Shown: piece by piece, positions 53,607-57,189 of the stretch | Position numbering within the stretch: the first letter of the stretch is position 1 | Layout: the number at the start of each line of letters is the position of its first letter | Virus record (IMG/VR): IMGVR_UViG_3300017650_000001 | Coordinates: 1-64,000 of that record | DNA: 64,000 bases | From: a virus | Strand: one strand, 5' to 3' | Position numbers and translations under genes: made by a program | Notes under the pieces: generated by a model | What the model saw: the letters and a program-made list of their open reading frames with translations, nothing else | What the model was told of the DNA's origin: nothing | Database searches by the model: none

Positions 53607-54416
53607 TTACACCTCTGCTGAATCTTGATAGATAGTTGGATCATCAATACCAGCTTCAAGAAAAGCTTCACGTCGTGAACGACATGTAGGGCAAACGCCG
53701 CAATGGAATTCGTCTCCTTTGTAACAAGACCACGTATCCTCAAACCGGACACCTAGTTCATCACCAAGAGAAACAACTCCTGTTTTATTGAGCCATTCAA
53801 GAGGCGTGTGCAAACGGATTTGCATATACGACCCAATGTAGATCGCGTTTGCCATCGCTCCGATAAATTCGGGAGTGCAATCAGGATAAGCCCAATTGTG
53901 AGCATCTTCGGAATGAGCCCCGAAGTAAATCCCTGCTGACACACTGCGGTCATCGGGGTGGTATTTGCCCGGGATTTCAACCTCTTTATTCTTCTCATTC
54001 ACCCACTTCTGGGCATGAGCAGTCAATGCTGAAAGCATAAGGCCATTGCGGAATGGGACATAGGTAGGAGAGACACCTTTGATTTGATCGTAACTGATGT
54101 CAGGCACGTCAACCTTGCCCCGGGAGTCATCTGTGAGCATGACAGCATCGCCGCGAAGAAGAGCGCCAACATCTAAGATAGTGTGCTTGATACGCAGACG
54201 CTCACAAGTCTTCGCAGCGTAATCCATTTCCTTCTTATGTCGCTGTCCGTAGTAAACACTAACAGCCTCGACCCAAAAGACAGGATCTTGCGCGTTGTTT
54301 CTGACAATGCTGCTCAAAGATTGAGTTGTATACTCAGGCGCATAGTCAAAGATTGCCTTGTGCAGGCAAGTTGTTGAATCAAGTCCTCCGGACAAGAGCA
54401 CAAAAGCTTTACGCAT
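53607..54416 (-). CDS. queC: 7-cyano-7-deazaguanine synthase
   Basis: LLSGGLDSTT, YGQRH..E, TYVPFRN, YPDC, TWSCY..HCGVCPTC. Confidence 0.95.
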   Translation of the reverse strand: MRKAFVLLSGGLDSTTCLHKAIFDYAPEYTTQSLSSIVRNNAQDPVFWVEAVSVYYGQRHKKEMDYAAKTCERLRIKHTILDVGALLRGDAVMLTDDSRGKVDVPDISYDQIKGVSPTYVPFRNGLMLSALTAHAQKWVNEKNKEVEIPGKYHPDDRSVSAGIYFGAHSEDAHNWAYPDCTPEFIGAMANAIYIGSYMQIRLHTPLEWLNKTGVVSLGDELGVRFEDTWSCYKGDEFHCGVCPTCRSRREAFLEAGIDDPTIYQDSAEV

Positions 54417-54434
54417 CTAGTCTCCCAAAAATAC

Positions 54435-54541
54435 TCGAGGGTTGATAGCCTTGAACCTGTTATGCCTCGAACGCTACCCGAGGCAGGCTATCTCTCTTTT
54501 CTGACGCCCTCGATCGCCAGTAAGGACAAACCGGGTAGCGT
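54435..54541 (-). ncRNA. Pseudoknotted multi-helix leader of queC
   Basis: Three nested perfect helices plus a 5' strand complementary to the terminal loop. Confidence 0.65.
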
Positions 54542-54545
54542 AGCT

Positions 54546-55073
54546 CTAAGCACTTCGCAGATACATACGCACCTCTTTGATGACATCAACATCTTTAGAG
54601 TTCAAACCCAAAAGCTTGCAGATGCGGTCATTCAAAGTTTCACGGCGTCCGTTTGCATAGCGTTCCAGCGGCTTTGAAACTTCTTCGCTACGCTGATCGC
54701 TGACCAACAAAGCAATTGTATCTTTAATGATCTTTGGAGCTTTGATCATCAAAACCTGAAAATCAGAATAGTCCGGGATGACCGCAGCATCACCTTCATA
54801 GACTTCAACAATATCACTGCGAGCATCATCCTGCTGTTTTGTTTTCTTGCGGGACAAGTCTGTGATGATGCAAGAGTAACAAAGCTTGAAGAGGCTCATA
54901 ATATGAGCTGGTTCAACAGCAGTGGGGTAGCGCCAACGAACTTCGTAGTAGGCAGCATAGCCCTCTTGTATCAGATCATCGTAGTCCATCCACGCAGCAA
55001 CACGCCAGTAGTTTTTTCGAGCGTAAGAGTGCATCCACGCCACCGCACCAGCGTCGGGAAGAACATCTGCCAT
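54546..55073 (-). CDS. Phage sigma-70-like factor (region 2 clear, region 4 degenerate)
   Basis: DYDDLIQEGYAAYYE...F......IITDLSRK; C-terminal ICKLLGL; start placed at ATG 55073. Confidence 0.6.
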   Translation of the reverse strand: MADVLPDAGAVAWMHSYARKNYWRVAAWMDYDDLIQEGYAAYYEVRWRYPTAVEPAHIMSLFKLCYSCIITDLSRKKTKQQDDARSDIVEVYEGDAAVIPDYSDFQVLMIKAPKIIKDTIALLVSDQRSEEVSKPLERYANGRRETLNDRICKLLGLNSKDVDVIKEVRMYLRSA

Positions 55074-55080
55074 TGTTGTG

Positions 55081-55192
55081 ATGCCTTTTGGTAACTTACG
55101 GAAAATTCCGGGGTCTGGACGGCCCCCGGCGCCGCCGTAAGAGGCATAGGTCCTAAGGGGTGAAGGAACTATGCAGCCCACCAGACTTGGGC
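55081..55192 (-). ncRNA. Three-hairpin leader with kissing loops, upstream of the sigma-like gene
   Basis: Hairpins 55176-55192, 55144-55174, 55096-55140; loop UCUGG complementary to loop CCAGA. Confidence 0.6.
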
Positions 55193-55201
55193 GAGATACA
55201 A

Positions 55202-55230
55202 ACTATAGCGCTACGGGAACGCCTACGCAA
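55202..55230 (-). promoter_or_regulatory. Promoter TTGCGT-N17-TATAGT
   Basis: Exact 17-bp spacing, directly before the structured leader. Confidence 0.7.
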
Positions 55231-55475
55231 TACTACTTTTGTCCGTCGTTGACACCTTTGATAAATCCGCCCACAGCTTTCCCCAAAGCTTGTGAAGCAT
55301 TCGGATCGGTAACTCCTTTGTACATACCGTAACCGACAATTCCCCATACGGATATGATTGCGAAGAAGATAACAACCCAAACAACCATGAACAGGCGAAA
55401 ACCAATGCTCATGGAACGTTGGTGGCGATCAAAGTCAAAGCCCATTGTGTCCTCCTACGGTTGCTAACAAAGAGC

Positions 55476-55507
55476 AACATAGATGGACGTCAATACAATT
55501 GCAAGCA
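55476..55507 (-). promoter_or_regulatory. Early promoter copy 7 (TTGCAA-N17-TATGTT)
   Basis: Minus strand TGCTTGCAATTGTATTGACGTCCATCTATGTT; precedes membrane ORF 55233-55445. Confidence 0.75.
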
Positions 55508-55951
55508 TTATCTATAGAATACAGCGCTATTGCCAGAATGTTCAGATACTTCAACCGACTTCAGGGTAACACGTGGAGCGTACCCAGCGTCTTGCAACCA
55601 TTGCTCAGCACACTCAAACACCATTTCCGCTACCTTCTCACAACCTGTAGCAGGAACAGTAATCAATTTGATGATGTTGCGTTTCTGAGCTTCTAAGAAC
55701 CAATCAAGGTGTGGATCGTCTTGAGCCACAAGCGTGACGTGGTCAAAGTTATCTTCAAGGATATTTTTCAAGGACTTGAGACTGCCAAAGTCAACAACCC
55801 AATTCCGAATATCGAGATCACGCGATTCAAATACAAACTTGAAAGCAAGGCTGTACCCATGCAGTTGTGCACAATGACTGTCAGCCCGCCACTGTCGGAA
55901 GCAGCAAGAAAGTCCAACATTGTGGTCATATTTCTTTGTTGACTGATACAT
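55508..55951 (-). CDS. queD: 6-carboxy-5,6,7,8-tetrahydropterin synthase
   Basis: HCAQLHGY, WVVDFG.LK, FDH, CEKVAE, VEVSE..NSA; start ATG 55951. Confidence 0.9.
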   Translation of the reverse strand: MYQSTKKYDHNVGLSCCFRQWRADSHCAQLHGYSLAFKFVFESRDLDIRNWVVDFGSLKSLKNILEDNFDHVTLVAQDDPHLDWFLEAQKRNIIKLITVPATGCEKVAEMVFECAEQWLQDAGYAPRVTLKSVEVSEHSGNSAVFYR

Positions 55952-56172
55952 ATCAGATTCCCTTATACACAGGCTTCTTTGAGCAACGCAGCGGTATTGG
56001 ATAGCACCAGTGCTGATCATGGTTCAAAGGCAAGCCTGTGAACTTCCCATTACGACCATCTGTGATCAAACTTGTAGGATCAAGTCCTCGATTTCGAGCA
56101 ATCTTTCCCCAGAAAAACAAAGCTTCGCCTTGTACAGGTCGAAGCTTCCAGAATTGACGCTGTTCAAAAGGT

Positions 56173-57189
56173 TCAAGTTGGTAGGTCTGTCGCATACAAC
56201 ACCTTTAGGAGTTCTCTTGTTGTCGTAATTTCGCCCGGGTCTTTAAATTGTTTAGGTAGCTTCTTTGCATCAACACCCAAAGTGACCAAGTCAGATCGAA
56301 TTCTAGCTGCTTTAGAAAAAGTATTCTGGTCCAGCAAAAGATATCGATTTTCAAACTTGGGCAAAATAGCATGAAGCAGGTTTAGTTGTTCATTTGATAA
56401 CATACTTGTGAAAAAGCAAGTAGCTACAATTCCATGAACTTCACCCAAAAGATTTACGCGCCACGCATCGAAAGGACCTTCGCACAAAACAATGGTGTGA
56501 GCTGGCGTATAAAGCAGCCTGTCATGGAATAGGAGGTAATGGCTAATGGGATTGGGCGCTGGAATTTCACCGCGCTCAGAAGCCTTCTCTAGATCGTGTG
56601 TCAGTGTTTTGTATCGGACCATCTGGTCTTTGTAAATCGTCCGACCAGTCCAGCCTACAATTTCACCGTACTCTCTGACGACAAAAATAATGCGACCCTT
56701 GTATAACCCACGTGAGGCGTAGTAAACGTCATAACCCTTTGATCGCGATATATCGCGATCAAGAAAGCCTCGATCATGCAAATAAGCAATGTAAGGACGT
56801 GCTGAAGGCAATCCCGAAAATTGCTTGAATTCAGAAGGCAGACGTAATTCAGGACGCTTCTCTTCAACTTCTTCTGTTTTGAAGAACTTTGACTTCAATT
56901 TATTCAAAAAGTCATCCGGGACCGAACGTTCATTACCAGCTAACCGGGAAGCTTGTTCCCACGAACATCCTAAGAGGGCTTGGATAAGTTTGGCCGGGTT
57001 CTTGCCCGAATGCTGTCTCGGATTTCTCCAACAGCGAAACCCTTTGCCGTTCAGGTTGACCGACAAATGCTGAGAGTGGTCGTCCACTCCGCACCATGGA
57101 CACTGTAAAGATATTTGTCCGCGCGACGTGTTTGGACCTGACGTCACATAGTGGATATGATGACGATCAAGGAACTCTACCCAGTCCAT
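56173..57189 (-). CDS. DNA primase (zinc finger + TOPRIM)
   Basis: CPWC..H..C; GRIIF, GR, RY; LCEGPFDA; LLD; KDPGE. Confidence 0.85.
   Translation of the reverse strand: MDWVEFLDRHHIHYVTSGPNTSRGQISLQCPWCGVDDHSQHLSVNLNGKGFRCWRNPRQHSGKNPAKLIQALLGCSWEQASRLAGNERSVPDDFLNKLKSKFFKTEEVEEKRPELRLPSEFKQFSGLPSARPYIAYLHDRGFLDRDISRSKGYDVYYASRGLYKGRIIFVVREYGEIVGWTGRTIYKDQMVRYKTLTHDLEKASERGEIPAPNPISHYLLFHDRLLYTPAHTIVLCEGPFDAWRVNLLGEVHGIVATCFFTSMLSNEQLNLLHAILPKFENRYLLLDQNTFSKAARIRSDLVTLGVDAKKLPKQFKDPGEITTTRELLKVLYATDLPT

Follow-up and report, generated by a model that had tools for sequence, protein, structure and literature searches.

Base pairing between the first and last hairpin tips in a conserved, non-coding RNA that precedes a sigma-like gene in uncultured soil phages

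Phages that encode their own sigma factors use them to switch to middle or late transcription; to our knowledge, the timing of sigma factor synthesis is mostly unknown outside a few model phages. The locus described here raises the question of whether the stretch in front of one sigma-like phage gene is a functional RNA and, if so, what that RNA does for the gene. The DNA analyzed (the window, 64,000 nt) is the first 64 kb of the 103.6-kb virus record IMGVR_UViG_3300017650_000001, which has direct terminal repeats. All genes around the locus lie on the minus strand, in the order primase (57189-56173), an 80-aa open reading frame, QueD/PTPS (56020-55508), a DUF7248 small membrane protein (55445-55233), a gap of 159 nt (55232-55074), the sigma-like gene (175 aa; 54546-55073, with the start set by an alignment of 26 proteins), a gap of 129 nt (54417-54545), and QueC (54416-53607). 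The 7-deazaguanine pathway (QueC, QueD) is thus encoded beside the sigma-like gene. The 159-nt gap bears the leader, a folded RNA of about 100 nt that follows a promoter within 55230-55074 (minus strand) and has a GC content of 0.57, compared with approximately 0.45 in its surroundings.

The preliminary description of this locus called the downstream gene sigma-like, and comparison of the protein sustains that label. Fifty homologues were found in a large protein collection, and a Pfam domain was assigned in 0/50. Below-threshold matches to Pfam Sigma70_r2 occurred in 12 of 26 homologues (best E, 0.003), and the protein contains the motif DLIQEGY. An AlphaFold model (mean pLDDT, 80.5) consists of two helical domains, and the Foldseek list obtained with it was made up almost entirely of sigma factors, at E values of at least 0.008. 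With VIA-align, residues 1 to 78 were superposed on region 2 of sigma-28, SigE, RpoE, and SigW (Z, 7.5 to 8.1; root mean square deviation [rmsd], 2.8 to 3.0 Å over 73 to 79 residues). The N-terminal domain as modeled therefore has the sigma region 2 fold, which is a statement about fold and not proof of function. Whole-chain alignments to ECF sigma factors span residues 1 to 175 but with an rmsd of 12 to 14 Å, and no Pfam region 4 match was found in the protein or in the 26 homologues. Among cultured phages, only remote Vibrio and Edwardsiella phage proteins (25 to 33% identity) were recovered, and some depositors annotated the Vibrio phage relatives as putative sigma factors; no relative of the protein was found in the species-genome collection. 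We consider the name "sigma-like" fair for this 175-aa protein. Separately, the heptamer GCGTATG shows a strong strand bias across the phage genome: against an expectation of about 6 copies per strand, the minus strand has 23 and the plus strand has 6. One copy (54564-54570) falls within the 3′ end of the sigma-like gene, shortly ahead of the queC leader. This bias fits a phage-specific promoter element, which the sigma-like protein may perhaps read.

An upstream true start would make the leader a coding region. Conservation of the sigma-like protein starts at residues 5 to 7 of the 26-protein alignment, which identifies the ATG at 55073 as the start, and in-frame stops occur 12 to 144 nt upstream of the start in all relatives. 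A coding leader was rejected on these two grounds, namely the in-frame stops that every relative has in its leader and the beginning of the protein alignment at the ATG at 55073; the same evidence rules out a true start upstream.

The promoter and the three hairpins that the preliminary description placed directly behind it match the sequence at all coordinates. The −35-like hexamer, TTGCGT (55225-55230), is followed after 17 nt by the −10-like hexamer, TATAGT (55202-55207). In all seven lineages with upstream sequence, TTGC(G/A)N is found at the same place; the −10 reads TATAGT, TATGTA, TATGAT, TAGGCT, or TAGATT, so that TTGC, TA...T, and the spacer of 16 to 17 nt are kept in 7/7. A simple promoter scan did not flag this promoter (8/12 matches, with TTGCGT agreeing at 3/6 positions). 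The predicted promoter is nonetheless sigma-70-like and is conserved at the positions that matter for promoters of the sigma-70 type. Given that the first hairpin begins 7 to 10 nt 3′ of the conserved −10 in every lineage with upstream sequence, the RNA would begin almost at that hairpin, and from this spacing we infer a transcript start 0 to 4 nt before it. A search for TTGCG-N16-18-TAnnnT as a repeated promoter class gave about ten scattered matches with no clear pattern, and this candidate was dropped. A copy of a repeated early promoter (TGCTTGCAATTG..., TTGCAA-N17-TATGTT) is located at 55480-55505 on the minus strand, before the DUF7248 gene; it is a different promoter, approximately 260 nt upstream of the leader's own.

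The spacer between the two hexamers itself contains a hairpin, P0 (55207-55223, minus strand), which was reported as terminator-like in the terminator scan. A spacer hairpin of this type is present at the same place in L002, L004, L007, L008, L010, and L054 (relatives are given by locus number), and L002, L007, L010, and L054 form clean 6-bp hairpins with compensatory and G-U changes. The P0 loop contains CCGUAG, a degenerate copy of the CCGUAAG found in the 3′ strand of the outer stem P3 described below, and complementary to the CUUACGG of its 5′ strand; the degenerate copy is kept in a promoter spacer that is otherwise variable. Pairing of the P0 loop with CUUACGG was rejected, being weak against shuffled sequences (p, 0.02 to 0.66 per sequence). 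Judging from its position, only transcripts that read through from the early promoter farther upstream (approximately 55494) would contain P0, and these could fold differently from locally started ones.

The leader itself comprises two consecutive hairpins, a composite third one, and a single-stranded tail (all coordinates on the minus strand). HP1 (55176-55192) has the stem GCCCA/UGGGC around the loop AGUCUGG; changes on both sides were observed at 5/5 pairs, and 45/45 alignment cells are paired. HP2 (55144-55174) has a stem of 6 plus 4 bp and the loop UCACCCCUU. Its stem letters differ in every lineage, a perfect hairpin of 9 to 13 bp is present throughout, and the CCCC in its loop is invariant (alignment A7). 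P3, a 7-bp outer stem that encloses the last hairpin and that the preliminary description missed, pairs CUUACGG (55135-55141; invariant in 9/9) with CCGUAAG (55095-55101). It is paired in 63/63 cells and is invariant except in L006 and L010, where the 3′ strand reads CCGUAGG and forms a U-G pair. HP3 (55108-55129), nested in P3, has the stem CCGGGG/CCCCGG around the loop GCCGUCCAGA; the stem is swapped in every lineage and the hairpin is perfect throughout. The internal loop between P3 and HP3 has U-rich 3′ sides (AAUUUU in the window, 55102-55107) and G/C-rich 5′ sides in 9/9 sequences. Across the relatives, HP3 has loops of 10 to 17 nt, a folding energy of −9 to −18 kcal/mol, and 2 to 4 U in the 8 nt 3′ of the stem. 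The unpaired tail (55074-55094) carries the ribosome site AAGG (55087-55084) and the conserved GGCAUCAC. From P3 to the AUG it measures 8 to 26 nt in relatives, with the ribosome site overlapping the end of P3 in L006, and neither RNAalifold nor pairing checks on the nine sequences found a conserved pairing partner for it.

The tips of the first and last hairpins are complementary. The preliminary description had reported UCUGG/CCAGA between loops 1 and 3; this complementarity is confirmed and extends to 6 bp, GUCUGG in the HP1 loop (55181-55186) with CCAGAC in the HP3 loop (55113-55118), whose final C belongs to the stem, as its first base, in the window copy. The kissing sequence is almost invariant among relatives, and the HP3 loop bases beside it vary freely. 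L008 and L009 give a local view of this variation: these near-identical contigs differ by a complete compensatory swap of the HP3 stem, which is GGCCGG/CCGGCC in L008 versus GGGGAG/CUCCCC in L009. This patch (L008:343-365 versus L009:555-577) is a local hypervariable stretch in a conserved RNA, with the loop core CCAGA kept.

To what extent do relatives support this fold? Scans with the 26-protein alignment yielded 2 viral and 60 metagenomic loci, the relatives coming from soil-type metagenomes. A covariance model built from eight leaders gave one match each, at E < 1e-20, in the window, L002 (= L011 = L111), L004/L005, L006, L007, L008, L009, L010, and L054; eight metagenomic relatives besides the window thus carry the leader RNA. 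The model found no leader in 91 unrelated IMG/VR loci, where chance pattern matches were rejected. DNA-pattern and protein scans of IMG/VR for family members gave only one other contig, and no second leader copy was found in the 103.6-kb genome; the leader occurs once per genome. The structural comparison covers these nine sequences, representing about eight lineages; about 40 closer homologues (Logan, ENA) lie outside it.

The evidence from the window alone is modest, with z values of −1.23 for a 141-nt fold and −2.37 for the 104-nt core, whose minimum free energy structure is the proposed one. With the relatives added, the evidence is strong. Folded singly, all nine sequences gave HP1, HP2, and P3 around HP3, with z values of −2.5 to −5.3 (mean, −3.7). 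In alignment A4, HP1, the kissing helix, and P3 together are paired in 162/162 cells with 6 pairs changed on both sides; 0/500 shuffles reached the observed pairing values, and sliding the partners by 1 to 3 columns lowered pairing to 32 to 42%. HP2 and HP3 stems show 2 to 5 pair types per position; these pairs were counted by script, and the trimmed-hairpin alignments (A7 and A8) are not end-flush. The check by covariation among homologues that the preliminary description had proposed therefore turned out in favor of the fold: the stems covary, and the six pairs of the kissing helix are paired in 54/54 cells. The loop complementarity is conserved, and the helix is never broken in the nine sequences. 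Within it, one pair is GC in five sequences, GU in two, and AU in two, and two further pairs have one-sided G-U changes. The G-U pairs in P3, HP2, and the kissing helix indicate an RNA on the gene strand only. The leader is thus a real, conserved, non-coding folded RNA in which the tips of the first and last hairpins pair.

Two remote homologues may share the layout with other letters, which is suggestive only. L035 gave a weak covariance-model match (E, 0.039) and keeps GUCUGG/CCAGAC in a changed context. The leader of the remote sigma-like homologue in L024 (L024:2330-2480) has three hairpins, with GUAGAG in the loop of the first complementary to CUCUGC in the loop of the last; the chance probability of this match is roughly 0.04. 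The remote sigma-like homologues in L018 (L018:330-480) and L021 (L021:2260-2400) have structured leaders of another kind, in which a GGGGC-loop-GCCCC hairpin is enclosed by the outer stem UCUCC/GGAGA, the ribosome site being part of that stem.

The leader is located directly 5′ of the sigma-like gene in every relative carrying it, and both flanking genes change. Its upstream neighbor is the 80-aa open reading frame in L111, L007, L008, L009, and L010, QueD in L004, L005, and L054, and the DUF7248 gene in the window; downstream of the sigma-like gene, QueD, QueC, or a 164-aa protein is found. Because the pair stays together while the neighbors vary, leader and gene form a conserved module. The 80-aa open reading frame is directly followed by the leader in most relatives, and in the window (55953-56195) it is separated from the leader by QueD and the DUF7248 gene (55233-56020). 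Some relatives have QueD after the sigma-like gene instead; since QueD precedes the leader or follows the sigma-like gene depending on the relative, the que genes move around the module.

The preliminary description had further proposed that the sigma-like gene is bracketed by two pseudoknotted RNAs, the second being the queC leader (54417-54545, minus strand). This did not hold up: no gap separates the sigma-like gene from the one that follows it in L111 and L006, and the queC leader has a z value of −0.37 in the window and is absent from the fetched relatives. The queC leader can form mutually exclusive folds, among them a long-range stem UCGAGGG/CCCUCGA followed by GUAUUUUU, which is terminator-like; its minimum free energy is no better than that of shuffled sequences. 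In L006, queD and queC abut.

Catalogues of known RNAs offered no counterpart. With gathering scores applied to the whole window, Rfam 15 gave 0 matches, and at E ≤ 10 on 54380-55300 none overlapped the leader; no tRNA or tmRNA was found. Models of preQ1 riboswitch classes I to III likewise gave no match at E ≤ 10, and a preQ1 riboswitch was rejected, as it is the sigma-like gene that invariably follows the leader and the que neighbors vary. A hammerhead was also rejected: the CUGAUGA that it needs is found in L004 and L054 and is replaced by CUGGUGG in the window. Full-text literature searches gave no description of the leader, which may be present among the ~10,000 viral structured-RNA candidates of PMC10690425. 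We class the leader as a new RNA family among structured, pseudoknotted phage mRNA leaders. An intramolecular kissing helix that holds two hairpins side by side is also seen in the purine riboswitch (L2-L3) and the hammerhead; unlike these, the leader has no three-way junction, no hammerhead core, and no Rfam match.

What, then, does this RNA do? The leader probably controls the amount of sigma-like protein. The best explanation of the observations jointly, with a probability of about 0.45, is that the non-coding folded 5′ leader is a cis-acting control that sets the level of the sigma-like protein after transcription start. The sequence-fixed parts comprise AGUCUG at the core of loop 1, CAG at the core of loop 3 together with the pairing bases beside it, both P3 strands, the CCCC of the HP2 loop, and GGCAUCAC of the tail. 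Since the helices vary and the letters of the kissing helix, P3, and CCCC are fixed, the latter resemble a recognition surface, as would be expected of an operator for a trans-acting factor. From the structure, we infer the following course of events. HP1, HP2 with its C-rich loop, and then the composite P3/HP3 hairpin would fold from near the 5′ end, and the kissing helix would tie this end to the last hairpin. The ribosome site, 8 to 26 nt after P3, would be left unpaired in the conserved fold. The fold would act as the operator for a trans-acting factor, for which a protein is likelier than a small molecule; with the factor bound, the fold at the 5′ edge of the 30S footprint would gate translation initiation, and the 5′-terminal HP1 may protect the mRNA. 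That the fold borders the 30S footprint is what points to translation. The variable distance from P3 to the AUG counts against the operator reading, and no expression platform is visible, with the ribosome site free in the conserved fold.

Known phage operators provide a partial parallel. The 5′ pseudoknot of T4 gene 32 and the T4 regA and gp43 operators are translational operators in phage mRNA leaders. The present leader resembles them as a folded, partly pseudoknotted element that precedes a regulatory or replication gene of a phage, just upstream of its free ribosome site, and in the reading by a protein that we propose. It differs in that its three hairpins and loop-loop helix make a larger fold, in that there is no sequence relation, and in that a binding protein is only proposed. 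A resemblance to preQ1-II and SAM-II, in which pseudoknots sequester the ribosome site, lies in the C/U-rich HP2 loop, which could pair with the purine-rich ribosome site. This pairing (3 to 6 bp, possible in all sequences) was rejected because it is no better than with shuffled tails (combined p, 0.12); in contrast to those riboswitches, it is without statistical support, the leader has no Rfam match, and no ligand is implied.

Control could instead be exerted on transcription or on the RNA itself. In the former case, HP3 and the U-rich tract would be a weak terminator or pause site, set by the HP1-HP3 loops or by a phage antiterminator, and read-through would close P3. In favor of this, a U-rich stretch comes after the GC-rich HP3 (−9 to −18 kcal/mol) in every sequence, with G/C-rich sequence on the opposite side of the internal loop, and the 5′-terminal hairpin base-pairs with the tip of the hairpin nearest the gene. 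Only 2 to 4 U are found in the 8 nt after the stem, however, and the loops are 10 to 17 nt long, so that HP3 could be at best a weak terminator or pause. Moreover, HP3 is absent from the terminator-scan list, no conserved alternative (antiterminator) pairing with the HP3 stem was found, and the invariant P3 and HP2 loop are left unexplained; we regard attenuation as doubtful. The position after the promoter also fits, by analogy, the HK022 put RNA, whose promoter-proximal stem-loops act on RNA polymerase and suppress downstream terminators. An effect on stability or processing is unlikely. Here HP1 would block 5′-end-dependent decay, and P3, the internal loop, and HP3 would form an RNase III-type site that frees an RNA of about 100 nt. 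HP1 lies 7 to 10 nt after the −10 in all lineages, leaving 0 to 4 unpaired 5′ bases, and the composite hairpin has an asymmetric internal loop between its lower and upper stems. At T7 R1.1-type sites, RNase III cleaves within the internal loop of a composite hairpin, to which that of the leader may be likened by shape alone. Neither a conserved loop-loop helix nor an invariant P3 or CCCC loop would be needed for such a function, though, and the stems are shorter than those of typical RNase III substrates.

The remaining readings make the leader a sensor, a source of small RNA, or a switch at the ribosome site. As a riboswitch-like sensor, the kissing-loop fold would be a small-molecule aptamer through which a metabolic signal is coupled to sigma synthesis. 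The leader shows the pattern typical of aptamers, a pseudoknot and variable helices combined with loops and junctions that do not change, and the 7-deazaguanine pathway adjoins the gene; on the other hand, no riboswitch model matched at E ≤ 10, no switchable platform was seen, the downstream gene is a regulator and not one for metabolism or transport, and the que neighbors vary between relatives, so that a metabolite sensor appears quite improbable. A broader version, in which a new sensor RNA (an aptamer or a dedicated phage-protein operator) times sigma synthesis and with it the early-to-late switch, for example via the pool of 7-deazaguanine precursors that are presumably built into the DNA of this phage, strikes us as a long shot. 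It is highly improbable that an RNA ending after HP3 acts in trans or as a same-strand antisense, by exposing CUUACGG or the C-rich loop; the same low estimate covers, jointly with it, the supposed targets, which would be CCGUAAG-like sites in the P0 loop and the P3 3′ strand or the ribosome sites of other mRNAs. Such a role would account for the conservation of the degenerate CCGUAAG copy in the variable promoter spacer, and HP2 does present a C-rich hairpin loop, C-rich hairpin loops being classical anti-Shine-Dalgarno seeds. However, the match of the P0-loop copy to CUUACGG stands out little from shuffled sequences, this copy precedes the inferred start, and the genome shows no enrichment of CCGTAAG. 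The P4 CI RNA (seqA/seqC) and the P1/P7 c4 RNA are same-strand antisense immunity RNAs; CUUACGG likewise has same-strand complements on either side, the upstream one in the P0 loop and the downstream one in the P3 3′ strand, but the upstream copy of the leader is degenerate and precedes the inferred start, and the downstream copy is an ordinary local stem. Least probable of all is the switch put forward in the preliminary description, in which the 3′ strand of HP2, AUGCCU, leaves HP2, pairs with AGGCAU, and covers the ribosome site. The two strands are indeed complementary over 6 bp in the window (55147-55142 with 55086-55081), and 4 to 5 bp are possible in L002, L010, L007, and L054. Conservation of the pairing did not stand: the register and sequence differ between relatives (4 to 6 nt in differing registers), compensatory changes are absent, L004, L008, and L009 have lost the pairing with the tail unchanged, and RNAalifold finds no conserved tail pairing. 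Ranked by decreasing probability, the mechanisms are a protein-read translational operator, a weak attenuator or pause, a stability or RNase III-type element, a small-molecule sensor, a trans-acting RNA, and the anti-Shine-Dalgarno switch.

The leader is a delimited, covariation-supported RNA with a tertiary loop-loop contact, tied to a sigma-like gene and found in uncultured soil phages that form a clade with genomes of about 100 kb. If it sets the level of the sigma-like protein as proposed, loop 1, loop 3, P3, and the CCCC loop would be mutable targets for the study of post-initiation control of a phage sigma factor.
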